Shown here: in pieces, positions 2,249 through 62,516 of the stretch | How positions within the stretch are numbered: position 1 is the stretch's first letter | Layout: each line of letters begins with the position of its first letter | Origin: Patescibacteria group bacterium | GTDB taxonomy: Bacteria; Patescibacteriota; Patescibacteriia; Buchananbacterales; SURF-54 | NCBI GenBank assembly: GCA_018818885.1 | Contig: JAHIRB010000007.1 | Location: 18,357-82,356, forward strand | Reading direction: 5' to 3' | Length of the DNA: 64,000 nucleotides | Notes under the pieces: model-generated | What the model was told of the DNA's origin: nothing | The model's database searches: none | Seen by the model: the letters and a program-made list of their open reading frames with translations, nothing else | Position numbers and translations under genes: made by a program

Positions 2249-4486
2249 ATGTCTTCTTACATACCACAAATCAGAGAATTGATAATTGCACCGCCCGATA
2301 AAGCGGCTTCTTATTGTAAATTTTTAAATTCCTCGGTTGAATCACAGTACCATCAAAACTTTGGTTATCTTTTTGGTTTGATTGAATATGAGGGCCCAAT
2401 TGAAAGTATTGATGATTTACTCAACCAATTACTTGGGGAATTACAAAACAATTTTTATTATGATAATTACGAAAAGGATATAGATTTAGAACAGCGACTA
2501 GAAATTGCTCTGCAAAAAACTAATAGCAATTTTTTAAGAATTTTAAATGCCTCTAAAGTAAATATTGAACTAGAAAAACTAAATCTTAATATTGCACTAG
2601 TTAAAGACAAAGACTTATTTTTAATTACAGTCGGAAAAATTCCAGCACTATTAGCTCACAAAGCAACAGATAATGAATACAAAATGATTGACATTGGAGA
2701 ATCCACTTCTGGAGATAAAGCAGGTAATAAAATTGACCCTCTAAAATTATTTTCTCAAGTAATTTCTGGTAGCATTACAACAAACGATTATTTATTTTTA
2801 GCCAATACTACTGTACTAGATTATCTTTCTTTAGAAAAAATTAAAAAGATTATTACTCTAAACAAAATCGATGATGCAATTTTAGAATTAAAAAAACTGC
2901 TTGATGAAGTTAATACTGATTTTAGCATGGGGTTAGTGATTATCTCTGTTGAACCAGCGCTAAAAGATCAACCAGAAATCATCATCAAACAACTAGAAGA
3001 ATTCGAATACACAAAAGCTGCCTCTAAAGATTCAATGCACGAACTTATCAGAACCCAAAACGCTACTCAAAAAATATTAAATACATCTTATTTACCTGAT
3101 ATCAATAAATACAGAACTGTATTCAAGAGATCAATGCAACAATATTTAAATAAAGTTAGAAGTGTACCAATACCAAAAATTCCATCGATTAATAAATTGA
3201 CCTCCATGCAAAAAGCCACTCAACAAATTGAAGAAAAACAATATAGACCCACTATGCAAGACAGACTTTCTAGCATACCAAATCCTTTAAAAAGTTTTAG
3301 GATTTTTAAAAGCGTAAGGTTTAAACTGCCATCAATAAAATTTATTAAAGAAAGAACCAGACAAATGACACCAAAAAGTCGTTTACTTTTATTTGCATCT
3401 ATTGCCCTAATAGTTATTTTTGGAATTAATGTGGTTTACATTGGTGTTAAAAATAAAAATGAGACCAATGCAGAACTGGTTCGCGAAACAATGCTTGCGG
3501 TTCAAGAAAAAAATGACGAGGCCAAAGCTAGCCTGATTTATGAAGACGAAACAAAAGCAAGAAAATTACTGCTAGAAGCAAAAGAAATACTTAATGAACT
3601 AACTAGTGAAAATAAAAAAGAACCTGCCATACAAAATTTAGAACAAGAAATTGAACTGCAACTATCTAAATTAAGACATTTAGTAGAAATTAACGATCCA
3701 CTCATGCTTGCTAATTTCGAAAATGTTAATTCAGCTGCAAGTGTTGCGCCGCTAATTGTGCTGTTAGAAAATAAAATATACAGTCAGGATCATAACAACC
3801 AAGCAATTTATAAACTTGACCCAGACACAAAAAATATCACAACAATTTTTCAAGCTGATGTAAAAATTAAAAACGCAATTTCTTCTAGGCCATTTAGTAG
3901 CTCGAAAATTATATTCTTGAATGAAAACCAAACAGTTTTTGAACTCAATACAAATTCAGATACAATTAGCCAACTGGGATTGAGTATTAATCCCGGAGCT
4001 GAGGTTAACGATTTTGATGTTTATAATCAGCGCTTATATTTTATTGATAAGAAAAATAATCAAATATATAGATATCGTGAGTTAGAAGAAGGCTTTGGCT
4101 CCCCTACTGATTGGATTAAAGAAAAAGTAGATCTATCGATGGTTACTTCTTTTGCCATCGACGGACAAATATTTTTACTAAAAGAAAACGGACAAATTAC
4201 CATGCTTTTGAATGGCTTAAAGACTGATTTTGAAGTATCTGATATTGATCCAGCGCTACAAAACCCAACTAAAGTAAAAACTTTTGTTGATTCAGACTAC
4301 TTATATATTTTAGATCCCTCCAGTAGTCGCTTAGTTGTAATAGATAAAACAGGTAAACTAATTATTCAATACCACTCGAGTAGTTTTGACAATTTAAAAG
4401 ATTTTGCAGTTGACGAACGTAACGATAAGATATATCTTCTAAATGGTAATATGGTTTTTGGAATTTCTGCTAATCACTTAGAATAA
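2249..4486 (+). CDS. large hypothetical membrane-anchored protein (cytoplasmic N-domain, one TM helix, coiled coil, C-terminal beta-propeller-like region)
   Basis: 745 aa; TM segment LLLFASIALIVIFGINVVYIGV mid-protein; coiled-coil stretch; repeated hydrophobic/aromatic blades near C-terminus. Confidence 0.5.
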   Translation: MSSYIPQIRELIIAPPDKAASYCKFLNSSVESQYHQNFGYLFGLIEYEGPIESIDDLLNQLLGELQNNFYYDNYEKDIDLEQRLEIALQKTNSNFLRILNASKVNIELEKLNLNIALVKDKDLFLITVGKIPALLAHKATDNEYKMIDIGESTSGDKAGNKIDPLKLFSQVISGSITTNDYLFLANTTVLDYLSLEKIKKIITLNKIDDAILELKKLLDEVNTDFSMGLVIISVEPALKDQPEIIIKQLEEFEYTKAASKDSMHELIRTQNATQKILNTSYLPDINKYRTVFKRSMQQYLNKVRSVPIPKIPSINKLTSMQKATQQIEEKQYRPTMQDRLSSIPNPLKSFRIFKSVRFKLPSIKFIKERTRQMTPKSRLLLFASIALIVIFGINVVYIGVKNKNETNAELVRETMLAVQEKNDEAKASLIYEDETKARKLLLEAKEILNELTSENKKEPAIQNLEQEIELQLSKLRHLVEINDPLMLANFENVNSAASVAPLIVLLENKIYSQDHNNQAIYKLDPDTKNITTIFQADVKIKNAISSRPFSSSKIIFLNENQTVFELNTNSDTISQLGLSINPGAEVNDFDVYNQRLYFIDKKNNQIYRYRELEEGFGSPTDWIKEKVDLSMVTSFAIDGQIFLLKENGQITMLLNGLKTDFEVSDIDPALQNPTKVKTFVDSDYLYILDPSSSRLVVIDKTGKLIIQYHSSSFDNLKDFAVDERNDKIYLLNGNMVFGISANHLE

Positions 4487-11702: not shown

Positions 11703-11744
11703 AATTAATTAGAAATTAAAAATTGAAAATTAGTAATTATTTCT

Positions 11745-14085: not shown

Positions 14086-14125
14086 TGTTTGGGATTTGGG
14101 ATTTGGATATTGGGATTTGGAATCA
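14086..14125. repeat. tandem octamer repeat (tgggattt x ~5)
   Basis: visible tandem repetition in fpg-guaA intergenic region. Confidence 0.7.
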
Positions 14126-20253: not shown

Positions 20254-23076
20254 TTATTTGCCGTGGCACTTTTTAAACTTCTTACCACTCCCACATGGAC
20301 AAGCATCATTTCTCCCTACTTTTTGTCCGTTGTAATGGGTCTGTGCGCTGTCTTCTAACTTTGCTTGACGTTTTTCTACATCTTGTTGCATTGCTTGCTG
20401 CTCATCAACTTTCTGATCCCTGATCCCTGATCCCTGATTACTGATTCCCTGCCCCCGTTCCATAGTCTTTGCCGGTGCTACAAACTGCATGCCTGCCCGT
20501 TGGAATATTCCTGGAGTAAACTGCTGTGCTACACCAACTTTGTATATAGAGTAAACTACTTGTTTTTGAATTAAATTCATCAATTCTGTAAATAGCTTAT
20601 ATGCTTCTTTTTTATATTCAACTAAAGGATCGCGCTGGCCATAGCCACGAAGTCCAATCCCAGTACGTAAATAATTTATTGCATCTAAATGTTCTACCCA
20701 CAAATTATCTATAGCTCTCAAATAGATTTGTTTTTCTACTTTTCGTATTGGAATAACTTTTGTTTCTTGGAAGTCAGCTGTGTTCTGCATTGCTTGATTA
20801 ACATTATATTCAAGTTTATCATATTGCTCTTTTGCAATATTTAGTAAATGATTGATTATTTTAGTTCTAGCCTTTACTTCGTCTGGTTTTGACTTTTCCG
20901 ACATGTCTTCCTTTATCTTGTCTAAATCTAAACGAAGGGTTTGATCGACTCTAAAAATTGAATTAGCTACTTCGTAAATTTCTTTAATATCCCAAGATTT
21001 AGGATCATCAGAAGCAGTATGGAAAGAAACCACCGCCTCAATCTCTTGCTCAATTAACTCAATAACTTTATCTCTAATATCGTCTTTCTCTAGCACTTCA
21101 CGCCTTTTCTGATACACTACTTCCCTATGCTTGTTTATAACATCATCGTATTCTACCAAATGTTTTCTGATATCAAAATTATGTCCTTCTACTTTTTTCT
21201 GCGCTGATTCAATTGAACGAGTAATCATTTTGTTTTCAATTGGCATGTCTTCTGGCACTTTTAGAGTTGTCATCATGCTTTTAATTCTATCAGACCCAAA
21301 AATCCGCATTAGTTCATCTTCTAAAGAAAGATAAAATCTAGTACTTCCTGCATCTCCTTGACGGCCAGAACGTCCACGAAGTTGATTATCTATTCTACGC
21401 GACTCATGCCTTTCTGTACCGATGACATGCAAACCACCAGCTTTTTTGACGATATCTTGTGCACCTTCTTCTGGCGGGTTACCACCTAAAACAATATCAA
21501 CTCCCCTACCGGCCATGTTAGTAGCTACTGTAACACCACTCGGTCGACCAGCTTGAGCAATAATGTTTCCTTCTTTTTCGTGTTGTTTGGCGTTTAGAAC
21601 TTGATGTTCTATTCCCGCTCTATTTAACATCTGTGATAAAAATTCGTTTTGCTCAATAGCAACTGTGCCAATAAGTACTGGCTGACCCTTAGTTTGCTTT
21701 TCTTTGATATCCTTAATTAGCGCCTCGTATTTTCCCTTGGCAGTTTTGTAAACAAGGTCGTTTTTGTCATCACGTACCATTGGTTTGTTTGTCGGTATTA
21801 CTGTAACTTCTAAACCATAAATTTTAGAAAATTCTTCTGCTTCTGTTGCAGCAGTACCTGTCATCCCAGAAAGTTTTTTGTATTGCCTAAAATAATTTTG
21901 AAAAGTAATTGTTGCCAATGTTTTTGATTCACGTTGAACTGCCACACCTTCTTTTGCTTCTATTGCTTGGTGCAAACCTTCTGAGTAGCGACGACCTTGC
22001 ATCATTCTACCGGTGAATTCATCTACGATAATTACCTCGCCATCTTTTACCACGTAGTCTTTGTCGCGCTTAAATAATGCATGCGCCTTTAATGCTTGTT
22101 CAATATGATGAACCATAGTAATGCCACCTTCGGTATAAATATTTCCCATGCCCAACATTTTTTCCATTTTTGTTATTCCGTTTTCAGTCAAAGTCGATGC
22201 TCGCATTTTTTCATCAATATTATAATCAACGTCTACTTCTAATTTTTTGACTAGTTCTGCAAACCGAGCATATTGGTCTGTACTTTCTGTATCTGGCGCA
22301 GATATGATAAGCGGAGTTCTGGCTTCGTCGATTAAAATACTATCGATTTCATCAATAATACAATAATGCAAATCTCTTTGAACCATTTGTTCTTTTGTTT
22401 GCACCATGTTGTCACGTAAAAAATCAAAACCATATTCATTGTTTGTGCCATATGTTATATCTGCAACATATGCTTCTTTACGTTCAACTGGGCGTAAAAA
22501 TTCATGTACAATTTTAAACGCACCCGTTTTATCGCGTTCTTTATCTTGTTCTGACCCTTCCTCTTTAGGTGTTTGATATGCTGGGTCATACAAAAAAGCA
22601 GACTCATGTTGAATACAGCCTACTGATATACCTAAAGAATAAAAAACTTGTCCCATCCAGACGCTATCTCTAGCAGCTAAATAATCATTGACAGTGATAA
22701 GATGTACACCCTTGCCTTCTAGAGCGTTTAGATATGCTGCTGTAGTAGAAGCTAAAGTTTTTCCTTCTCCGGTTCTCATTTCTGCAATTATGCCGCGATG
22801 CAAAGTTATACCACCCATCAGCTGTACGTCGAAGTGTCGCTGTTTTAGTGTTCTTTTGGCAGCTTCTCTAACGCATGCGAAAGCATCCGGCAAAATTTCG
22901 TCAAGTGACTTTCCGTCTTTAAGTTGGGATTTAAAAACCGATGTCTGATTTTTAAATTCATCTTCAGACATCTTTTGATATTTTGGTTCTAATTTATTTA
23001 TCTCGTCGACTTTGTCTTGTAGTTCCTTAAGAACTTTGACATTTGGATCTCCGAGAATTTTTGTGAGGATGGACAT
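20254..23076 (-). CDS. secA: preprotein translocase ATPase SecA
   Basis: 940 aa, DEAD motor motifs, C-terminal CPCGSGKKFKKCHG zinc finger. Confidence 0.95.
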   Translation of the reverse strand: MSILTKILGDPNVKVLKELQDKVDEINKLEPKYQKMSEDEFKNQTSVFKSQLKDGKSLDEILPDAFACVREAAKRTLKQRHFDVQLMGGITLHRGIIAEMRTGEGKTLASTTAAYLNALEGKGVHLITVNDYLAARDSVWMGQVFYSLGISVGCIQHESAFLYDPAYQTPKEEGSEQDKERDKTGAFKIVHEFLRPVERKEAYVADITYGTNNEYGFDFLRDNMVQTKEQMVQRDLHYCIIDEIDSILIDEARTPLIISAPDTESTDQYARFAELVKKLEVDVDYNIDEKMRASTLTENGITKMEKMLGMGNIYTEGGITMVHHIEQALKAHALFKRDKDYVVKDGEVIIVDEFTGRMMQGRRYSEGLHQAIEAKEGVAVQRESKTLATITFQNYFRQYKKLSGMTGTAATEAEEFSKIYGLEVTVIPTNKPMVRDDKNDLVYKTAKGKYEALIKDIKEKQTKGQPVLIGTVAIEQNEFLSQMLNRAGIEHQVLNAKQHEKEGNIIAQAGRPSGVTVATNMAGRGVDIVLGGNPPEEGAQDIVKKAGGLHVIGTERHESRRIDNQLRGRSGRQGDAGSTRFYLSLEDELMRIFGSDRIKSMMTTLKVPEDMPIENKMITRSIESAQKKVEGHNFDIRKHLVEYDDVINKHREVVYQKRREVLEKDDIRDKVIELIEQEIEAVVSFHTASDDPKSWDIKEIYEVANSIFRVDQTLRLDLDKIKEDMSEKSKPDEVKARTKIINHLLNIAKEQYDKLEYNVNQAMQNTADFQETKVIPIRKVEKQIYLRAIDNLWVEHLDAINYLRTGIGLRGYGQRDPLVEYKKEAYKLFTELMNLIQKQVVYSIYKVGVAQQFTPGIFQRAGMQFVAPAKTMERGQGISNQGSGIRDQKVDEQQAMQQDVEKRQAKLEDSAQTHYNGQKVGRNDACPCGSGKKFKKCHGK
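20413..20451. repeat. in-frame heptamer microsatellite (ctgatcc x3 then ctgatta/ctgattc) inside secA C-terminal coding region
   Basis: encodes QGSGIRDQ-type repeat; same ctgattact unit recurs at 24505-24556. Confidence 0.7.
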
Positions 23077-24504: not shown

Positions 24505-24556
24505 TCTGATACCTTGCACCTGATTACTGATTACTAGTCACTGATTACTCACTACT
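24505..24556. repeat. ctgattact microsatellite (3-4 units) in murB-hpf intergenic region
   Basis: direct inspection. Confidence 0.6.
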
Positions 24557-33359: not shown

Positions 33360-35144
33360 TTGTCTATAATGGCACAAATATTACTAATATGTTATAATAT
33401 ATCCACTATGTTAACACCCAAACAACTAAAAAGCATACTTGTTGAGGAAGGTGTGCTTTCAGAAAAAGAGTTAGAACTAAATTTAAAGGAGGCCGAAAAA
33501 GAAGGAGTTTCTTTAGAAGAATATCTTGAAGCAAAAAAACTTGTTTCTCAACATGATATTTATAATGCTGCAGCTAAACACTATAAAGTTGCATTTATTG
33601 AGTTAAAGAATTTGACCATCAGAAAGGACATCTTGTTATTAATTCCAGAACCTATTGCACAAACTCATAAAATTATTGCTTTTGAAAAAAATAATAATAA
33701 ACTTAAAATTGCAGCGCTAGACCCACAAGACTTGGAAATATTTGAATTTTTAAGAAAAAAAACTGGCCTAGAAGTTGAAATTCATTTAACAACACCCCAA
33801 AATCTTAATGACGTTTTAAAACAATACCACAAAGGCCTAAAGGCAGAATTTGAAAAAATAACAGAAAAGAAAGCAACAGAAACAACTGACGAGAAAACAG
33901 GTGATAAGCTAAAAGAATTAGCAGAAGACCTCCCGGTTATTCGAATAGTTGATACATTGCTTGAATACGCAATTATTGAAAACGCCTCTGATATTCATAT
34001 CGAGCCATTAGAAAAAGAAGTTAATGTCCGGTACCGAATTGACGGTATTTTAAGAAATGTGATGACTCTACCTAAATCAGTTCATGCAGGTGTTATAGCT
34101 CGTATTAAAATATTATCTCACTTAAAACTAGACGAACACCGCCTACCTCAAGATGGGAGATTTAAAGTTGTTAACCCAGAATATAAGGTTGCTTTTAGAG
34201 TTTCGATAATGCCAACTTTTGATGGCGAAAAAGCAGTTTTGAGATTGTTGAACGAAAATTCCCAAAAGCTGACTCTAGAGCAACTTGGTTTTCAAAACAA
34301 ACCGCTAGAAATTATTCAAAGAAACATTAAAAAACCTCATGGCATGATTTTAGTTACTGGCCCAACGGGATCAGGAAAAACAACTACTCTGTACACAATT
34401 CTAAACATCTTGAATAGAACAGAAGTAAACATTTGCACTATAGAAGACCCAATCGAATATAGAATGCAACATATTAACCAAAGCCAAGTCAGCCCAAAAA
34501 TTGGTTTTAATTTTGCCACCGGCTTAAGATCTTTCTTAAGGCAAGATCCAGACATTATTATGGTTGGTGAAATTCGTGATACTGAAACTGCAGAAATTGC
34601 TGTTCACGCAGCCATGACAGGCCATCTAGTACTTTCAACACTGCACACAAATGATGCCGTAACCACATTGCCTAGATTAAGTGATATGAACATACCTTCA
34701 TTTTTAGTTGCTTCTACAACCAATATAATTATAGCTCAACGTTTGGTAAGAAAAATCTGCCAAGAATGCGTAGAAAGTTACAATTTAGATAAAAATGCAA
34801 TTAAGGAATTGGAAAAACAAGTAGATTTAGAAAAAATATTTAAAAAATTGGAAAACGAAAAAGAAATACTTCCAGGAAGACAGAAAATTGATAGCTTATT
34901 ATTCTATCGAGGTAAGGGATGTAGTAGATGCAATAAGACAGGGTACAAAGGAAGGATTGGCATCTACGAAGTACTTGAGATAAATGAAGAAATCTCAACT
35001 TTAATACAAAAAAACGCCAAAACTGATAAGTTGCTTGAAGCTGTAGAAAAACAAGGCATGATTACTATTCTAGAAGATGGTTTTATCAAAGCAAAAAATG
35101 GCATTACTACGCTAGAAGAGATACTTCGGGTCACAAAAGAATAA
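33360..35144 (+). CDS. pilB: type IV pilus assembly ATPase PilB (GspE family)
   Basis: Walker A VTGPTGSGKTTTLY, Asp box, His box, C-terminal tetracysteine; ORF-track start is TTG, true start probably ATG at 33369 or 33408. Confidence 0.9.
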   Translation: MSIMAQILLICYNISTMLTPKQLKSILVEEGVLSEKELELNLKEAEKEGVSLEEYLEAKKLVSQHDIYNAAAKHYKVAFIELKNLTIRKDILLLIPEPIAQTHKIIAFEKNNNKLKIAALDPQDLEIFEFLRKKTGLEVEIHLTTPQNLNDVLKQYHKGLKAEFEKITEKKATETTDEKTGDKLKELAEDLPVIRIVDTLLEYAIIENASDIHIEPLEKEVNVRYRIDGILRNVMTLPKSVHAGVIARIKILSHLKLDEHRLPQDGRFKVVNPEYKVAFRVSIMPTFDGEKAVLRLLNENSQKLTLEQLGFQNKPLEIIQRNIKKPHGMILVTGPTGSGKTTTLYTILNILNRTEVNICTIEDPIEYRMQHINQSQVSPKIGFNFATGLRSFLRQDPDIIMVGEIRDTETAEIAVHAAMTGHLVLSTLHTNDAVTTLPRLSDMNIPSFLVASTTNIIIAQRLVRKICQECVESYNLDKNAIKELEKQVDLEKIFKKLENEKEILPGRQKIDSLLFYRGKGCSRCNKTGYKGRIGIYEVLEINEEISTLIQKNAKTDKLLEAVEKQGMITILEDGFIKAKNGITTLEEILRVTKE

Positions 35145-35161
35145 AATTACTTAAAACAAAA

Positions 35162-36244
35162 ATGCAACCTTTATTTGAAAAAATAAAAAAATTTACAATA
35201 AATCTGCAAAGAGTTCCTGTTTCTCAAAAAATATTTTTTGTTCAACAGTTGGGCATTATGATAAAAACCGGCATTTCGCTTTCTGTAGCTTTAAACACTT
35301 TAAGCCGTCAAGCCTCAAATAAAAAATTTAAAACCATACTTTTATCTTTAAAAAGTGAAGTAGAAAAAGGAAATTTACTTTCTAAAGGTTTAGAAAAATA
35401 CTCCCAGGATTTCGGTGAGCTTTTTATTAATATGATAAAAACTGGAGAAACTTCTGGTAAGTTAGAGGACGTCTTAAAACAATTATATATTCAGATGAAA
35501 AAAGATCACGAGATTGTGGGTAAGGTAAAGGGTGCCTTAATCTATCCAGCGATTGTTATTACCATGATGATAGTAATAGGAATTTTAATGATGGTTTACG
35601 TTATCCCAAATATCACATCAATTTTTGAAGAAGTAAACGCTCAAATCCCACTTTTTACTAGAATATTAATATGGTTAAGTAAATTTATTACAGCCAATGG
35701 AATTTTAGTAGCTGCTGTTTCATTAATATCGATAACAATTTTTGTTCGCCTAATAACTTGGGAAAAAGGTAAATTTCAATTTCATAGAATTTTATTAAGG
35801 ACACCGGTTGTTGGAAAAATAATAGTAAAAATAAATTTAGCAAGATTCTGCAGAACACTTAGCTCTTTATTAAAAACAGATATACCTATTGTAAAAACTT
35901 TTGGCATAACTGCAGATGTATTAAGCAATCGCTTATACCGAAAAGCGTTAAATGAGGCTAAGGAACAAATACAAAAAGGGGTTAGTATAGAAAAATCTTT
36001 AAATGTTTACCCTAAACTTTTTCCACCAGTAATTTTGCAAATGATTGCAGTGGGCGAAGACACAGGTTCTTTAGACGACGTATTACAAGAATCAGCAATT
36101 TTTTACGAAGACGAAGTATCCCAAACCATGGATAATTTACCATCTATAATGGAACCAGTTTTAATGGTTATTTTAGGTCTTGGAGTTGCTGCCATGGCAG
36201 TTGCTGTTATTATGCCAATGTACAGCTTAAGCCAAGCAATTTAA
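35162..36244 (+). CDS. pilC: type IV pilus inner-membrane platform protein PilC (GspF family)
   Basis: two T2SSF repeats, 3 TM. Confidence 0.85.
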   Translation: MQPLFEKIKKFTINLQRVPVSQKIFFVQQLGIMIKTGISLSVALNTLSRQASNKKFKTILLSLKSEVEKGNLLSKGLEKYSQDFGELFINMIKTGETSGKLEDVLKQLYIQMKKDHEIVGKVKGALIYPAIVITMMIVIGILMMVYVIPNITSIFEEVNAQIPLFTRILIWLSKFITANGILVAAVSLISITIFVRLITWEKGKFQFHRILLRTPVVGKIIVKINLARFCRTLSSLLKTDIPIVKTFGITADVLSNRLYRKALNEAKEQIQKGVSIEKSLNVYPKLFPPVILQMIAVGEDTGSLDDVLQESAIFYEDEVSQTMDNLPSIMEPVLMVILGLGVAAMAVAVIMPMYSLSQAI

Positions 36245-36245
36245 T

Positions 36246-36362
36246 ATGACCCAGTAGTGATCCCGTAAAATTTAAATTACTATTGGATTATAAAAACATA
36301 AAAAAATTTGGAATAATTAATAAATATAATAAATGCCATTTACGGGACTACTACCGGGTATG
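36246..36362 (+). mobile_element. MITE-like element copy E2 (long-TIR subtype, 118 bp), ATG-bounded, between pilC stop and pilin-like gene start
   Basis: TIRs atgacccagtagtgatcccgtaaaa / tttacgggactactaccgggtatg; AT-rich core; terminal ATG is start codon of downstream gene. Confidence 0.6.
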
Positions 36363-38633
36363 AAAACCAAAAATCAAAAAGGACTATCTTTAATCGAAGT
36401 ATTATTTTCGGTTTTTATTTTGGCTATTTTGAGTATAGGAATTTTTTCTCTGTTCCAAATTGCTTTGAATGTTTTAGCAGAAAATAAAGCCAGAGTTGGT
36501 GCAGTTTCGTTAGCCAACGAAAAAATGGAAATTATCAGAAACTTATCATACGAAAATGTTGGTACAGATGGCGGATGGCCATCAGGAGATCTTGAACAAA
36601 CAGAACTTATTACTAAAAACAATATTGAATATACTGTTAATATAGCTATTAATTACGTTGATGATCTTTTTGATGGTGATTGTGACACTGACTTAGATTG
36701 CAATGATTATAAAGACGTTGAAATCGAAGTGCTGTGGACTGGGCATTTGGGTGTGCGTAACGTGATTATGAGAACAGCAGTTGCGCCACGAGGTTTAGAA
36801 ACGATGACTGGCGGAGTTTTAAGAGTGAGTGTATTTGATGCTAATGGTGATCCTGTGGATAACGCACAAGTCCACTTAGTTAATAATATTATTTCTCCAA
36901 CAATTAATACAAATTTTTATACTAATGATAGTGGTCAGGTAATTATTCCTGATCTTGAAGAATCATTAAACACATACCAACTAGATGTAACAAAGATAGT
37001 AGTCCCAGGGGAGACAGAATACAGTATTGATAGGACTTGTGCTATTGATTCTAATTTTGCAGATTGCACAAACGGTAATGCAGACCCAACCAAACCACAC
37101 GCCTCAGTAATCGAAAGTGAAATTACAGAAATTAGTTTTGCCATTGACCTTGTCTCGACTTTAACCATAAGAACAGTTAATCAAACTACGCCTTTGGCAT
37201 GGATAGTTAATACCGGCGACCTTTCAGAAGATCAAGACAACCCAGCCATTACGGTGTGTGATAGTGGCGAATATATTTTTGGTTGGCGAGATGATGATTA
37301 TGGTATAGATAAAATATATAGCCAAAGATACGACGAATATGGTGAAGTGATTTGGGTAGAAGATAAAGCGATTTCAACGGCTTCGAAACAAAACAATATA
37401 GACTTAGCCGTAGATAATGATTGTAATATTTATGCTACTTGGCAAGATGATAGAGACGATAAAGGTAATGAAGATGTGTATTTTGTTAGTTACGATGACA
37501 ACGGAGATGATCGTTGGGACGGCGAAAAAAAGATAGTCACAGAAGCTGAAAGTTCAGATCAAAGCTGGCCAAAAATCACTCTAAACACTGCTAAAGATAG
37601 AGCTTATATTGCATGGGAAGATGAAAGAAATGATAATGGCGATATCTACATTATAAAATATGATATTTCATCAGAAGAAACTCCACTATCAGTAGTAGCA
37701 GAATTCGATCCAGCAATAAAGGTAAATTCTGATTCAATTGGTTCAGCGCAGGAAAAACCAGTGGTAGCTAACGATACAGATGATAATATTTACGTTGTTT
37801 GGGAAGATGATAGAAATTTTAATTATGATATTTATGCTCAAAAATTAAATAGTGATGGAACCAAGTTGTGGTCTGACACAAAAATAAATTCTGATTCTGG
37901 CGCATCTCAAGAAAATCCAGATATCGCACTTGATTCTTCAGACAATTTGTATGTTGTCTGGCAGGATTTTAGAAGTGATAATGATTATGACATTTATATT
38001 CAAAAATACGATAGCTCTGGCAATAGATTGTGGGCATTAGAAGATATTAAAGTAAATTCTGATTCTTCTGACGCATCTCAAGAAAATCCTGTAATAGCAG
38101 TATATGACCCCGGAACACCAGCTGATATTAGAATTTATGTCGTCTGGCAAGATTACAGAAACAGTAACTCTGATATATACATGCAAATTTTTGATTACAA
38201 TGGTAATAAACAATTAGATTATGATCTCAATATTGGAAATGGTAGTGCAGACCAAGAAAATCCAGATATAATAATTTCTCCGATCACTGGGTTTCCAACA
38301 ATAACCTGGCAAGACAACACCAACGGCGATTGGGATATAATAGCAGCGCAATACGGAGACACAATAGAAAACGGTGGTAACGTTGCAAATGTGGCTTTTG
38401 ACATGTCTGGCTCAAAAACTATTGGTGAAGATATAAACGAAGATCCTATCTATAAATATAACAATATTACCCTACAAACTGACGGTACTGGGACTCTAAT
38501 ACTTACAAATATGGAATGGGATACATACACAATTAATCTTGATCCTGACCGCACACTTCTAATGTCAGAACCCCCTATCCCCTTCTTATTAAATCCCAAT
38601 ACTTCGTTAACCGTATTTCTAAATGTTGAATAG
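36360..38633 (+). CDS. giant type IV pilin-like protein: prepilin N-terminus + seven ~45-aa YVVWxDxR...DIYxQK repeats (predicted beta-propeller)
   Basis: leader MKTKNQKG then LSLIEVLFSVFILAIL (class III signal); tandem sequence repeats visible in translation. Confidence 0.7.
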   Translation: MKTKNQKGLSLIEVLFSVFILAILSIGIFSLFQIALNVLAENKARVGAVSLANEKMEIIRNLSYENVGTDGGWPSGDLEQTELITKNNIEYTVNIAINYVDDLFDGDCDTDLDCNDYKDVEIEVLWTGHLGVRNVIMRTAVAPRGLETMTGGVLRVSVFDANGDPVDNAQVHLVNNIISPTINTNFYTNDSGQVIIPDLEESLNTYQLDVTKIVVPGETEYSIDRTCAIDSNFADCTNGNADPTKPHASVIESEITEISFAIDLVSTLTIRTVNQTTPLAWIVNTGDLSEDQDNPAITVCDSGEYIFGWRDDDYGIDKIYSQRYDEYGEVIWVEDKAISTASKQNNIDLAVDNDCNIYATWQDDRDDKGNEDVYFVSYDDNGDDRWDGEKKIVTEAESSDQSWPKITLNTAKDRAYIAWEDERNDNGDIYIIKYDISSEETPLSVVAEFDPAIKVNSDSIGSAQEKPVVANDTDDNIYVVWEDDRNFNYDIYAQKLNSDGTKLWSDTKINSDSGASQENPDIALDSSDNLYVVWQDFRSDNDYDIYIQKYDSSGNRLWALEDIKVNSDSSDASQENPVIAVYDPGTPADIRIYVVWQDYRNSNSDIYMQIFDYNGNKQLDYDLNIGNGSADQENPDIIISPITGFPTITWQDNTNGDWDIIAAQYGDTIENGGNVANVAFDMSGSKTIGEDINEDPIYKYNNITLQTDGTGTLILTNMEWDTYTINLDPDRTLLMSEPPIPFLLNPNTSLTVFLNVE

Positions 38634-39237
38634 AAATAAAACTGGATACACATTGCTTGAAATAATATTTGCCATTTCAATATTTACGCTGGCAATAACA
38701 ATGGTTTCTGCCTATATTGTAACAGGTTATAAAACCAGTAGATTTGCAGAGGAGCAAAATGAATCTATTGAGCACGCACGTAAAGGTATCGAAACAATGA
38801 TCGAGGAAATACGAGAAGCAAGCCCAGCCGAGAATGGAGATTTTGCCATAGCAGAAGCAGATGAACAAAATTTTGTATTTTATAGTGATATTGACGTAGA
38901 TCAACAAACCGAAAAAGTAAGGTACTTTTTAGAAGGATCAGACCTTAAAAAAGGCGTTACACAACCTACAGGTTTCCCAGTAACTTATCCAACAGAAAAC
39001 GAAGTGATAACAATCCTTTCTATGTATGTTAGAAATGATACTGATCCAATTTTTTATTTCTACGATGCTACTTGGGCTGGCACAGATACAAATGATTACC
39101 TTACAACACCAGCTTCTCCTAATCAAGTTAATATTATCAGACTAAACTTAGAAATTAATATTAATCCAGCCATTGCACCTAATCCATTTATTTTAGAATC
39201 ATACGTCAACGTCAGAAACCTTAAAGAAAATCTTTAA
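38623..39237 (+). CDS. type IV pilin / pseudopilin (prepilin-type N-terminal methylation domain)
   Basis: MLNRNKTG then YTLLEIIFAISIFTLAI. Confidence 0.7.
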   Translation: MLNRNKTGYTLLEIIFAISIFTLAITMVSAYIVTGYKTSRFAEEQNESIEHARKGIETMIEEIREASPAENGDFAIAEADEQNFVFYSDIDVDQQTEKVRYFLEGSDLKKGVTQPTGFPVTYPTENEVITILSMYVRNDTDPIFYFYDATWAGTDTNDYLTTPASPNQVNIIRLNLEININPAIAPNPFILESYVNVRNLKENL

Positions 39238-39254
39238 TCAAACAACAAATAATA

Positions 39255-40736
39255 ATGTACAAGTCCCAAAAAAATAAAAACAATAATTGGAAATTGGAAA
39301 TTGGAAATTGGAAATTTCAACAGAAGGGTGCTATACTTATAATGACAATGACCTTTACAGTTGTTTTTTTAATTATTGCTGGAGGTCTTATCGCCCTAAT
39401 AAATCAACAACAAAGATTAAATAGAATTAGAAAAGCTAAAGCACAAGCACTACATCTTGCAGAAGCTGGTGTAAATTATTACCGCTGGCATCTTGCGCAT
39501 GATCCCGATGATTATACCGATGGTACCGCTACTACCTGCAACGAAGAAACGAATCCATGTATTCATGATTATTTGCAAGGTGATACTATGGGTCAATTCT
39601 CATTAACCATTACGCCACCTTCCACTGGTTCAACAGTCGTAACAATTAAATCCACTGGCTGGGTAAATGATTTCGAAGATTATAAAAGAAGAGTTGTCGC
39701 AAAATACGGACTACCATCTTGGGCACGCTATGCTGTAGTTGCTAATGCAGATATGCGTTTTGGTGAAGGTACTATTGTCCATGGTCCATTACATTCTAAT
39801 GGTGGAGTTCGATTTGATGGTATTGCTTATAACGAAATTACTTCTGCCCAGGAAAGCTATAACGATCCAGATCATAGTGGTGGTAATGAGTTCGGAGTTC
39901 ATACACACGTAGACCCTACGGATCCTCTACCGCCCACAACCGTACCCGCTAGATTAGATGTATTTGCAGGAGGAAGAAGTTTTCCCACCCCTTCAATTGA
40001 TTTTAACGCCATTACGGTCGATCTAGCTATGCTAGAAGATGCAGCAGATGATGACGGTCTACATATCAAAAAATCTAATCAAGAAGGCTGGCACATTATA
40101 CTATCTCCAAATGGCACATTAGATTATAGAAAAGTTGATTCATTTGAATACTGTGGTAGTACTCCAACCGGAGGAGATTTAGATTATCAAGGTAATTGGA
40201 CAACCGATGAACCATTTCCCAACAATGGCATAATCTTTGTTTCAGATCATGTCTGGATTGATGGGAGTATAGATGGACACAGACTAACTATTGTAGCTGC
40301 AGAAGATCCACTAGCTTCTGGTGATGCTGATATTTGGATAAATACAAATTTAACATATACAAATTACAACGGAACTGATGCTATTGGCCTCATAGCGCAA
40401 AATGACATTAATATTGGTTTATATAGTGAAGATATTTTAAGAATTGATGGTGCACTTATTGCACAAAATGGACGAGTCGGTCGTTATCATTACTCTTCTT
40501 CGTGCGATCCAATTTATTACGACAGAGATACAATTACAGTTTTTGGTGCGATTGCGACAAATCAAAGATATGGATTTAAGTGGGTTTATGGAGACGGAAC
40601 CAAGGCATCAGGATATACAACCAGAAACCTAGATTTTGACGGTAATTTAACCTATGCTCCCCCACCTCTATTTCCCTCTACTGACACTTACGATTTTATT
40701 TCTTGGGAAGAGGTCTTAATAAACGAAACTTATTAA
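39255..40736 (+). CDS. PilX-like minor pilin / pilus-associated protein
   Basis: QKGAILIMTMTFTVVFLIIAGGL...AEAGVNYY resembles PilX_N domain; 5-prime coding end contains heptamer tract. Confidence 0.5.
   Translation: MYKSQKNKNNNWKLEIGNWKFQQKGAILIMTMTFTVVFLIIAGGLIALINQQQRLNRIRKAKAQALHLAEAGVNYYRWHLAHDPDDYTDGTATTCNEETNPCIHDYLQGDTMGQFSLTITPPSTGSTVVTIKSTGWVNDFEDYKRRVVAKYGLPSWARYAVVANADMRFGEGTIVHGPLHSNGGVRFDGIAYNEITSAQESYNDPDHSGGNEFGVHTHVDPTDPLPPTTVPARLDVFAGGRSFPTPSIDFNAITVDLAMLEDAADDDGLHIKKSNQEGWHIILSPNGTLDYRKVDSFEYCGSTPTGGDLDYQGNWTTDEPFPNNGIIFVSDHVWIDGSIDGHRLTIVAAEDPLASGDADIWINTNLTYTNYNGTDAIGLIAQNDINIGLYSEDILRIDGALIAQNGRVGRYHYSSSCDPIYYDRDTITVFGAIATNQRYGFKWVYGDGTKASGYTTRNLDFDGNLTYAPPPLFPSTDTYDFISWEEVLINETY
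39284..39313. repeat. heptamer microsatellite (aaattgg x4) in 5-prime coding end of PilX-like gene
   Basis: direct inspection; unit length not multiple of 3. Confidence 0.75.
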
Positions 40737-40742
40737 CAAATA

Positions 40743-41798
40743 ATGTTTTCTCCTAACACAACTGCATTTGGTCTAGATATTTCTGACTTTGCAATAAGAC
40801 TAGTTAATCTAAGAAAGACTAGATCAAGTGTTAGCATTGAATCATTTAACGAACTGAAAGTGCCTGCAGGCTATATTGTTGATGGTGAAATCAAGGATGA
40901 AGAAAACGTAACAAAATTACTCAATAAATTACTACTGACTGCTCAAGGTAAAAAATTATTAAAAACTGAAGTTGTTTCTGTGCTACCGGAAACAAAAACC
41001 TTTATTAAAATAATCACTGTTAAAAAAACTGAAAAAAAAGAGCTACCCAAAGCTATCAAGTTGGAACTAAAAAAACATATACCAATTAATATCGAGGAAA
41101 TCTACTTGGATTGGCAAGTAATTTCTGAAAATGAAAAAACTATGAATGTATTAGCTGGTATTGCCCCTAAAGTAATTGTAGATTCATACCTAAATATTCT
41201 AAGAAAAGTTAATTTAATACCACTGGTCTTAGAAATTGAAGCTGCTGCAATTTCGCGTGCCTTAATTGCTGGTGACGATAAAGCTAAGATAATAATTGAT
41301 ATAGGAGCAGCACGAACCGGTTTAATTGTTTATGTCCATAACACGATCGTGCTTACTGTTAGCTTACCTATATCAGGAGAAAAAGTAACACAAGAAATTT
41401 CACAAACATTAAATATTGATTACCAGAAAGCAGAGAAAGCAAAATATGTCTGTGGACTAGATAAAACAAGATGTAAAGGAGCATTAAGGAAAATTCTTTT
41501 TAATTCTATGGATAATCTAGTCTTTGAAATAGATAAGGCAGTTGAATTTTACACAACCCACTTTCCACAAAGTGAAAAAATATCTCAAATTTATCTATGC
41601 GGCGGTGGAGCGTATCTAAAAAAAATTGACAAATATTTATCTCATCGCATAAAAATGGAAGTGATAACTGGCGACCCGCTTAGAACAATCAAAAAAGATA
41701 AACTAAAAGAAATAAAATTTCCTGTGAATCGTTCTCTTTCTTACACAACAGCTATCGGTCTTGCCTTACGTGGAGTTGATAAAAATAATTTATTATGA
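40743..41798 (+). CDS. pilM: type IV pilus assembly protein PilM (actin-like ATPase fold)
   Basis: FGLDISDFAIRLV N-terminus, length 351 aa, position before PilN/O-like genes. Confidence 0.75.
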   Translation: MFSPNTTAFGLDISDFAIRLVNLRKTRSSVSIESFNELKVPAGYIVDGEIKDEENVTKLLNKLLLTAQGKKLLKTEVVSVLPETKTFIKIITVKKTEKKELPKAIKLELKKHIPINIEEIYLDWQVISENEKTMNVLAGIAPKVIVDSYLNILRKVNLIPLVLEIEAAAISRALIAGDDKAKIIIDIGAARTGLIVYVHNTIVLTVSLPISGEKVTQEISQTLNIDYQKAEKAKYVCGLDKTRCKGALRKILFNSMDNLVFEIDKAVEFYTTHFPQSEKISQIYLCGGGAYLKKIDKYLSHRIKMEVITGDPLRTIKKDKLKEIKFPVNRSLSYTTAIGLALRGVDKNNLL

Positions 41799-42334
41799 TT
41801 ACTCTTAATTTAATATCACCAGTACAAAAAAAAGAATTGAAGTTGATTCGTGCTTTTTTGATATTAAAAAACGTAATAATATATTTACTACTTTTCTTAA
41901 TCCTAACAGCAATTATTCTTCTTTTCTCTAAGCTTATTCTTCAAAATAATTTTAATCGTGTTATTGCAGAATTTAATCTTAATAATCAAACAGGGACTAT
42001 TTTCACCCAAGACATCAAACAATTTAACCAAAAAATAAAAGTTATAGAATCTGTACAAAACAGTTACATCTCCTGGTCCGAACCAATTGTTTATTGGTTA
42101 AATTTAATGCCAAAAAACGTTGTCCTTAACTCATTAATTATTAATAAAGAAAAACAAATTATACAAATTTCTGGCAGAGCTTTGAATAGAGCTGCACTAC
42201 TTGAGATGGAACAAGCATTAATGCAAGCAGAATGCATACAAAATTTATGTATGGAAGAAATTGATATTCCAATTTCACAAAAAATATTAAAAGAAAATAT
42301 TGATTTTCAAGTATCTGCAAAATTAATCATTTAA
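41795..42334 (+). CDS. PilN-like bitopic membrane protein
   Basis: single N-terminal TM plus coiled coil, 4-nt overlap with pilM. Confidence 0.5.
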   Translation: MITLNLISPVQKKELKLIRAFLILKNVIIYLLLFLILTAIILLFSKLILQNNFNRVIAEFNLNNQTGTIFTQDIKQFNQKIKVIESVQNSYISWSEPIVYWLNLMPKNVVLNSLIINKEKQIIQISGRALNRAALLEMEQALMQAECIQNLCMEEIDIPISQKILKENIDFQVSAKLII

Positions 42335-42339
42335 AAATA

Positions 42340-42867
42340 ATGAATATCGTAAAAAAATTTATAATATATTTAGTGATTGTAATCATTATTTATGTGTCAA
42401 TAATATTTTTTGTTATTATCCCAACAACAAGCGACATTCAGGCAATCAGTGACCAAATATATAACGAAAGAATTGACCTTGAAAAAAGATACAAAAAGGG
42501 TCAGTTGATAAAACAACTAGTTGAAGATTTTAGAAAAATTAAACCACAACAAGATCGATTAGAATTAATATTTGTTAAAGAAAGTGAAATTCTTAATTTT
42601 GTAACTAGCTTAGAAAATCTAGCTAATAATAATAATATTGATTTAAGCATAAAGCTTAAAGAAATCGAAAACACTAATAACATAGCTAGCATGCCTTTAG
42701 ACTTAACTATTGGAGGAAGCTATCAGAATGTCATTGCATATTTAAATGATATTGAAAAACAAGATTATTATTTTAGTATAGATAGTATAAGAATTAATAG
42801 TGCCGGGCAAACTGCTGGAATTATCAACTTATTTGTGCATGGCGATATTTTTATTGAATTAGAATAA
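42340..42867 (+). CDS. PilO-like bitopic membrane protein
   Basis: single TM, coiled coil, position. Confidence 0.45.
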   Translation: MNIVKKFIIYLVIVIIIYVSIIFFVIIPTTSDIQAISDQIYNERIDLEKRYKKGQLIKQLVEDFRKIKPQQDRLELIFVKESEILNFVTSLENLANNNNIDLSIKLKEIENTNNIASMPLDLTIGGSYQNVIAYLNDIEKQDYYFSIDSIRINSAGQTAGIINLFVHGDIFIELE

Positions 42868-42872
42868 TAACT

Positions 42873-43202
42873 ATGAAGCTTAATATAAAAAAAATAAAAG
42901 TCGGACTCAACATTAACATTATATACAAGCTAATTTATCCAGTAATGTTGATCGTGATACTTGTTGGAGTAGGTTTTTTAATGATATTTCTTTATAATGA
43001 CATTTACAAAACAATCACACATGCGGAGGAAGTATCAATACTTAGAACTGAGGTTGCACCAGAAGTTTTTCAAATAAAAACTTTCGAAGGTGTTATGGAA
43101 AATCTAGACCAAAAAACTACAAAAGCCTCAATTGATAAATCATTAATAAAAAATGTTTTTACCATTCCTCCTGTCGAAATACTAAAACCAGAAATACAAT
43201 AA
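42873..43202 (+). CDS. hypothetical membrane protein (pilus cluster)
   Basis: 109 aa, one TM. Confidence 0.35.
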   Translation: MKLNIKKIKVGLNINIIYKLIYPVMLIVILVGVGFLMIFLYNDIYKTITHAEEVSILRTEVAPEVFQIKTFEGVMENLDQKTTKASIDKSLIKNVFTIPPVEILKPEIQ

Positions 43203-62479: not shown

Positions 62480-62516
62480 TTACTTGTTACTTGTACATTG
62501 TACATTGTTACTTGAC
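62480..62516. repeat. heptamer tandem repeats (ttacttg / tacattg)
   Basis: direct inspection. Confidence 0.6.

Follow-up and report, generated by a model that had tools for sequence, protein, structure and literature searches.

A perfect heptanucleotide repeat in the leader-coding region of a Patescibacteria minor pilin gene: slippage expansion or phase-variation switch?

Does a non-triplet repeat at the 5' coding end of a pilus gene act as a phase-variation switch in Patescibacteria? This question is raised by a stretch of 64,000 nucleotides (nt) from a Patescibacteria group bacterium (assembly GCA_018818885.1, contig JAHIRB010000007.1, positions 18,357 to 82,356 of the forward strand), which is called the window below. 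A unit of seven nucleotides is repeated in tandem near the beginning of a gene that is predicted to encode a minor pilin of the ComZ/PilX type. The original prediction had proposed this tract as a candidate slipped-strand phase-variation switch. On balance, we lean to the view that the tract is a tolerated slippage expansion that preserves the frame. It would form a latent frameshift site in a pilin leader that is under weak constraint and is probably cleaved off.

The heptamer tract and the leader that contains it

Tandem Repeats Finder detected a perfect (AATTGGA)x4.6 tract with period 7, 100% matches and a score of 64, which was the top-scoring perfect short repeat of the window. The letters from 39281 to 39320 read acaat, four AATTGGA units, AATT and tcaa. 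The tract covers 32 nt with 25 consecutive lag-7 matches, and no other perfect repeat of period 4-12 in the window is as long. When the window was shuffled 100 times with dinucleotides preserved, the longest perfect repeat of these periods reached 19-25 nt versus 32 nt in the real sequence. The tract is thus real on both tests. It had been described as aaattgg x4 at 39284-39313, within codons 10-20 of the open reading frame (ORF) that begins at 39255. The tract and the ORF are the same, but the register was off by about one base (the first unit there is tAATTGG) and the codons are actually 11-21, which are translated to N-W-K-L-E-I-G-N-W-K(F). As had been stated, the non-triplet unit lies inside the ORF and ahead of the hydrophobic N-terminal segment. 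It is downstream of the sole in-frame ATG before the hydrophobic helix. Its 3' end is 10 nt upstream of the Gly25 codon, after which the hydrophobic segment reads AILIMTMTFTVVFLIIAGGLIAL.

The leader was compared across the family. All of the 120 homologs examined have a short, variable and mostly basic leader, followed by a conserved (K/R/Q)G and then a hydrophobic segment. The leader length ranges from 3 to about 50 amino acids (aa) in these homologs, while the Gly and the hydrophobic segment are conserved. The family median is 10-11 aa. The same minor-pilin signature is present in the window protein (short leader, Gly at -1, hydrophobic N-terminal helix), and its leader is probably removed by prepilin peptidase at Gly25. 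Within protein clusters of 90% identity, the mature parts were 95-100% identical and the leaders were unrelated. Because leaders differ completely between proteins of more than 90% identity, the alignments indicate that this segment is very weakly constrained, with high turnover.

One such pair was inspected at the DNA level. L006 (3930-4000) and L085 (1500-1580), two members of one 90% cluster, differ halfway along the leader-coding region, where GC-rich hairpin-like inserts that are unrelated to each other have taken its place: CCGCCAAAGGCGG...TCCGCCTCTGGCGGA in one of the two and CCCCG...CGGGG in the other. The inserts are bordered by direct repeats, and the 20-mer AAAGTCAAAAGTTATTAGTC occurs twice in L085. 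Point mutation seems a poorer fit to this difference than turnover by insertion or duplication.

The start codon decides whether the tract belongs to the leader at all. ATG 39255 stands in an A-rich context without a Shine-Dalgarno site. This is typical of the window, in which most genes lack such a site and have A/T-rich upstream sequence, so ranking the starts by Shine-Dalgarno was uninformative. The three nearest loci (L001-L003) start at the equivalent ATG, just past the stop of the upstream gene. The tract is most likely translated, because ATG 39255 is the sole in-frame ATG before Gly25, has the typical context and has equivalents in these three loci. As a side observation on starts in the window, a strong AGGAG was seen at a few genes only (93, 23361). 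In several genes, with 35162, 40743 and 42340 as examples of the starts surveyed, a TATAAT-like box stands 6-12 nt ahead of the ATG, a sign that their mRNA leaders may be very short or missing.

Frame arithmetic and origin of the tract

The copy number was varied in a simulation. With 1.6, 4.6 or 7.6 copies the gene was in frame with ATG 39255, and all other numbers led to a stop after 26-58 aa. The claim that gain or loss of one unit shifts the frame was therefore borne out. The orthologs show which step has been taken in the window. L001, L002 and L003 have 80, 69 and 68% aa identity to the window protein, and the alignment has an exact 21-column gap opposite the tract. These relatives keep a single copy, TGG/AAATTGGAAAT, and L002 reads AAATTGGAAAT. 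The Trp codon at the 3' end of the tract is conserved in relatives as NWK, SWQ or MW. Compared with the single-copy relatives, the window tract has three more units, that is 21 nt and 7 aa (KLEIGNW). The addition is exactly three units, and therefore the frame is preserved.

Two orthologs carry repeats of their own in or near the leader-coding region. L002 (69% identical) has a heptamer tract, CAAGTGA x2.7 at 2979-2997, in the 23-nt spacer from the upstream stop to the ATG, outside the coding leader. L017, a Candidatus Harrisonbacteria ortholog with 49% identity, has two tracts in its 40-aa leader (3911-4031). One is a perfect AATTTTC x4.3, and the other is a degenerate GAAATTG/AATTGGA x3.9, whose translation, NWKLEIGN, is also encoded by the window tract. 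The likeness may be due to either convergence or shared ancestry.

The following mechanism would account for the tract. A single-copy proto-repeat, AAATTGGAAAT, which is still seen in relatives, would have been expanded by exactly three heptamers through slipped-strand replication. The frame would have stayed intact, with KLEIGNW added to the leader of a ComZ/PilX-type tip minor pilin. This leader would be a short, basic and disordered segment ahead of the conserved Gly and the pilin helix, probably to be removed by the prepilin peptidase. Repeats in it would be tolerated provided that the frame is kept, because the constraint on the leader sequence is very weak. Heptamers would be the favoured slippage unit of the lineage and would accumulate where they are tolerated, namely between genes in 5' regions, in the leaders of pilins and in linkers that are disordered. 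On this view the window tract would be a latent frameshift-prone site and not an evolved high-frequency ON/OFF switch. Besides the cleavage of the leader, we infer that the expansion is nearly neutral and that the switching rate is low.

Switching, alternative starts and heptamers across the lineage

A genuine translational phase-variation (contingency) switch is the strongest competitor of the slippage expansion, and we regard it as unlikely. Slippage by one unit would turn the tip pilin ON at 1.6, 4.6 or 7.6 copies and OFF at the others. By analogy with the neuO and Neisseria pilC tracts, a fraction of the population would thereby gain or lose pilus priming, DNA uptake or host attachment. 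The position of the tract speaks for such a switch, since a perfect non-triplet repeat stands in the 5' coding region of a surface pilus component, between the sole in-frame ATG and the essential Gly and helix, and the OFF frames end early. Enrichment of short repeats near N-termini is also a recognised signature of phase variation (PMC3315296).

The neuO tract, 5'-AAGACTC-3', lies in the 5' coding region of the O-acetyltransferase of the CUS-3 prophage in E. coli K1; it has 3-53 units with a mode of 20, minority lengths occur within cultures, and the gene was OFF in 65.6% of 64 genomes (PMC13001214). Both tracts have a 7-nt unit in the 5' coding region, give the full-length protein for one copy-number class modulo 3, and add repeat residues that are tolerated. 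Unlike neuO, the window tract has 4.6 units, no documented polymorphism, no OFF among orthologs and a location in a probably cleaved leader. For Neisseria pilC1/pilC2, Jonsson et al. are said to have shown experimentally in 1991 that a poly-G tract in the region coding for the signal peptide switches at high frequency. As in the window, a simple repeat stands where the leader or signal peptide of a protein associated with the type IV pilus tip is encoded, and a frameshift abolishes the protein. The Neisseria tract differs in being a homopolymer, and PilC is a PilY1-type protein rather than a ComZ/PilX-type pilin. Haemophilus influenzae hmw1A/hmw2A have promoter heptamers of 13-38 copies with graded transcriptional control (PMC2651432). 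There the heptamers control a surface adhesin from the promoter or 5' untranslated region, unlike the coding frameshift of the window tract.

The length of the tract argues against a switch. It has only 4 full units, whereas the cut-off of PhasomeIt for tetranucleotide and longer units, a cut-off for phase-variable tracts, is 5 (PMC6321876) and the units of neuO and hmw are far more numerous by mode or range. OFF alleles were then sought in 83 orthologous loci. These consist of 80 species-representative Patescibacteria loci from a genome-contig scan, minus one without the anchoring motif, plus the three closest relatives and the window; the sample amounts to 710 kb of Patescibacteria sequence. 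No OFF allele was found in the 83 loci, all of which have an in-frame ATG, including 10 with a repeat between the ATG and the Gly; this contrasts with the share of OFF genomes for neuO. Two short gene calls from the 90% clusters, P0124 and P0125, were considered as OFF alleles and rejected: their DNA is in frame or identical, and the calls reflect the start-codon choices of gene callers.

Near strains were compared for tracts similar to that of the window. None of the five comparisons showed a change in unit number, and only substitutions were seen. TCGCCCT x3 was the same in two assemblies and had substitutions in a third, and AAAGTCA x3 had a degenerate copy of the same length as its counterpart. 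AATTTTC x4.3 kept its length in three variants of 99.8% identity with one substitution, and TGAAAAT x4.1 kept its length in three variants. CGAAATAT x4.4 was perfect in one strain, and the copy in another had the same length with four or five substitutions. For the window tract itself, a search of 5.8 billion proteins gave no relative above 80% aa identity, and the exact 24-nt pattern of the last unit plus the conserved downstream flank had no match in the genome or metagenome contig collections. The proposal of a phase-variation switch gained no support, and the number of units, the frame-keeping addition of three, the 83 loci, the five comparisons and the heptamers in secA and beside housekeeping genes described below all argue against it.

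Then we counted repeats along the same loci. For perfect repeats with a unit of 4-12 and a length of at least 18 nt, the 120 nt leading up to the Gly codon had a density of 0.70 per kb, versus 0.026 per kb elsewhere in these loci. When imperfect repeats were allowed, 13 of the 83 loci had 15 repeats before the Gly codon, corresponding to 1.5 per kb versus 0.12 elsewhere. Period 7 accounted for 14 of these 15 repeats and for 37 of the 84 elsewhere; over the 710 kb it made up 20 of 25 perfect repeats and 51 of 99 reported by Tandem Repeats Finder. In 10 of the 13 repeat-bearing loci the repeat lies between the sole in-frame ATG and the Gly codon, and most of the remaining heptamers in the family loci are also within about 100 nt of a gene start. 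The unit sequences are all different between loci (AATTTTC, ATTTCGAT, TCGCCCT, AAGTCAG, ACGTTGC, TGAAAAT, TAAAACT), with a degenerate form of the window unit in L017. Only about 16% of the orthologs have any tract, and many of the tracts are degenerate (68-92% matches) and are therefore decaying rather than kept pure; both points again speak against a switch.

Several observations weigh against a merely tolerated expansion. Before the Gly codon of the ComZ/PilX-type gene, the density of repeats is 12-27 times that of the rest of the loci. Repeats near the start were found in 7 of 83 ComZ/PilX-type genes, compared with 6 of 134 for the remaining prepilin-like genes and 7 of 410 for all others. 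This enrichment at pilin 5' ends can be explained by relaxed constraint, and also by recurrent selection for the switching of pilus genes. The window tract is 100% pure and the longest of its kind in the window, which may come from recent or ongoing slippage, or from selection for purity. Moreover, the comparisons of unit number cover similar tracts in orthologs and not the window tract itself, and the consensus sequences of metagenomes would hide minority OFF variants.

The same enrichment can be read more broadly. Heptamers, occasionally octamers, of unrelated units in prepilin leaders might form a lineage-wide contingency system of Patescibacteria for pilus-tip proteins, with the window tract as one active and pure example; we consider this rather improbable. 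Heptamer or octamer tracts of independent sequence at the same place in 13 of the 83 orthologs are in line with it and with a switch at the window tract, and so are tracts in the leaders of other prepilin genes such as AGAATGC x4.7 in L037. This last tract (L037:1264-1310) lies in the leader of a 619-aa prepilin-type protein, a large pseudopilin, and contains an ATG in every unit, so that an ATG is available in all three frames at any copy number. If the broader reading were true, DNA uptake or host attachment would be switched on and off in ultra-small episymbionts. No description of phase variation in the Patescibacteria radiation was found in the literature searched. Should the window tract prove to be a switch, the Candidate Phyla Radiation would have its first described contingency locus. 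The locus would act on the pilus-tip protein of a machinery thought to serve DNA uptake and host contact, and the heterogeneity of piliation in populations could be tested directly from metagenomic reads.

Against a switch, heptamers are also found outside surface genes. Four of the seven perfect repeats in the window are heptamers; Table 1 lists the heptamer tracts, imperfect ones included. The intergenic tracts lie in short spacers, just past one stop and ahead of the next start. The tract in the essential secA is translated in frame as GQGISNQGSGIRDQ, in a variable C-terminal linker before the SEC-C zinc motif. On this sequence evidence, the preference for heptamers extends across the lineage and is not confined to surface genes. 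An over-representation of heptamers in bacterial repeats, explained by polymerase slippage, has been published (PMC4692102), and heptamer repeats are found just 5' of start codons in Beggiatoaceae and cyanobacteria (PMC4679880). The known cases include those of Calothrix/Nostoc, GGGAATC of Xanthomonas and TAACTGA just 5' of starts in Beggiatoaceae (PMC4692102, PMC4679880). They resemble the Patescibacteria tracts in the dominance of unit 7, the 2-6 copies, the location at gene 5' ends or between genes, the variation in length between relatives and the proposed polymerase slippage. In contrast, the known systems have one or few unit sequences genome-wide and are mostly intergenic, whereas the Patescibacteria have a different unit at each locus and many tracts in translated pilin leaders.

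If there is no switch, which is the more likely case, a non-triplet repeat at the 5' coding end is by itself no sign of phase variation in these genomes, because heptamer slippage is common and is tolerated in pilin leaders, intergenic regions, disordered linkers and even secA. Whichever reading holds, the recurrent concentration of heptamers before the conserved Gly codon, in the hypervariable leader-coding regions of Patescibacteria pilins, is a modest new observation that deserves follow-up.

A further alternative is that translation starts from TTG 39294 or from Met30/Met32. In that case all or part of the tract would belong to the 5' untranslated sequence, and its copy number would be frame-neutral, at most tuning initiation or leader length. 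We find this improbable. There is one TTG per unit, and in the simulation the third TTG from the 3' end was in frame whenever at least three units were present. This putative start would give a leader of 11-12 aa, near the family median, and its use could blunt an OFF state, which is also a point against the switch. The ATG in every unit of L037, the Beggiatoaceae heptamers just 5' of start codons (PMC4679880), the scarcity of ribosome-binding sites by which starts could be ranked, and the lack of RNA structure in the region (z +1.4), which is permissive for initiation, are compatible with a downstream start. Against it stand the placement of ATG 39255, its equivalents in homologs, and the NWK codons at the 3' end of the tract, whose homologous codons in relatives (NWK, SWQ and MW) are coding; most family tracts also contain no start codon. 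The original prediction had itself raised a start at the Met of MTMTF. Such a start is unlikely: it would cost the protein its invariant Gly and some of the conserved segment, the Gly and the upstream basic leader are kept by all 120 homologs, and the three nearest loci start just past the upstream stop. The Met30/Met32 positions are conserved as Met only among close relatives.

Finally, a cis-regulatory element of DNA or RNA is very improbable. The tract would then act as an array of binding sites, as an internal promoter whose -35-like boxes read TTGGAA, or as a structured RNA. A promoter-like TTGGAA-18-TATACT with an upstream TG does overlap the last unit, the GGA motif occurs four times and the related repeat of the distant ortholog L017 lies at the same place, but promoter-like matches were at shuffle level (20 found, 22 expected), the -10-like box belongs to coding sequence that relatives conserve (G-A-I-L), units differ between loci with no common binding motif, the RNA folds less well than shuffles, and the closest relatives are without the repeat. 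The internal promoter, the RNA structure and the sequence-specific binding site were each rejected on these grounds.

The pilin gene, its operon and other features

As originally stated, the gene is a type IV pilus component, which is supported by its operon neighbours (Table 1) and by a fold match. The gene order of the operon is identical in L001-L003, both pseudopilins upstream of the gene are of the N_methyl type, and the PilM of the nearest relative is 71% identical to the window PilM. The protein has 2855 homologs, essentially all from Patescibacteria, and the best has 80% aa identity. The window protein had no match to PF14341 (PilX_N) at E<=1, and 15 of 32 family members matched this family (best E 2.2e-5).

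The AlphaFold (AF2) model of the protein has a predicted local distance difference test (pLDDT) score of 85. Residues 1-19 have low pLDDT and are disordered, residues 20-82 form a long helix like that of pilins, and beta-rich domains follow. The top fold match of this model in the PDB was ComZ of Thermus thermophilus, 6qvi (Foldseek E 8.6e-10, prob 1.0, TM-score only 0.28). A sequence profile search of the PDB with the window protein gave no match. Both proteins are large minor pilins with an N-terminal helix and a beta-solenoid, encoded at a type IV pilus locus. They differ in domain arrangement and share about 14% identity. The predicted fold combines a pilin helix with a beta-solenoid that is like ice-binding proteins, as in Thermus ComZ. 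ComZ has been proposed as a DNA receptor at the pilus tip, and we know of no repeat tract in comZ. On the predicted model, the window protein is a ComZ/PilX-type tip minor pilin; the earlier name PilX-like is acceptable, and ComZ/PilX-type is more exact.

Table 1. Features of the window that are discussed in the text
Feature	Position	Strand	Basis or remark
Perfect heptanucleotide microsatellite (AATTGGA)x4.6	39285..39316	+	repeat finder, shuffles
Most likely start ATG	39255..39257	+	17 nt past upstream pseudopilin stop; sole in-frame ATG 5' of Gly25
Leader-peptide coding region, 24 codons, MYKSQKNKNNNWKLEIGNWKFQQK	39255..39326	+	hypervariable in family; probable cleavage at Gly25
Conserved Gly25 codon, -1 position of prepilin-like cleavage site, then hydrophobic alpha-1 helix	39327..39329	+	invariant in 32-sequence alignment
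In-frame TTG inside tract, possible alternative start, leader MEIGNWKFQQKG	39294..39296	+	
Internal in-frame ATGs Met30, Met32 (MTMTF) in hydrophobic segment	39342..39350	+	possible re-initiation if leader frameshifted
493-aa ComZ/PilX-type minor pilin gene (predicted): N-terminal pilin helix, then beta-solenoid-rich domains	39255..40736	+	homologs, fold match
Type IV pilus operon context	33360..43202	+	pilB-like ATPase, pilC (T2SSF), 766-aa pseudopilin, 204-aa pseudopilin, ComZ/PilX-like gene, pilM, pilN, pilO, small ORF
Heptamer AATTAAA, divergent spacer of bacA and DUF212 (divergent PAP2) family gene	11707-11732		
Heptamer TCCCAAA, guaA-fpg spacer	14088-14120		
Heptamer GGATCAG in secA (gene 20254-23076), x3.7 perfect, 5.4 copies imperfect	20413-20451	- (gene)	
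Heptamer GTAATCA, murB-hpf spacer	24520-24549		
Heptamer CAAGTAA/TGTACAA, upstream of HIT-family gene	62480-62514		

The 766-aa prepilin-type protein of the operon (36333-38633) has a CarboxypepD_reg-like domain and many internal D-x-DIY...W repeats, which suggest a propeller-like repeat. Its orthologs often have heptamer tracts at the 5' end of the gene (L037, L048, L064 and L070).

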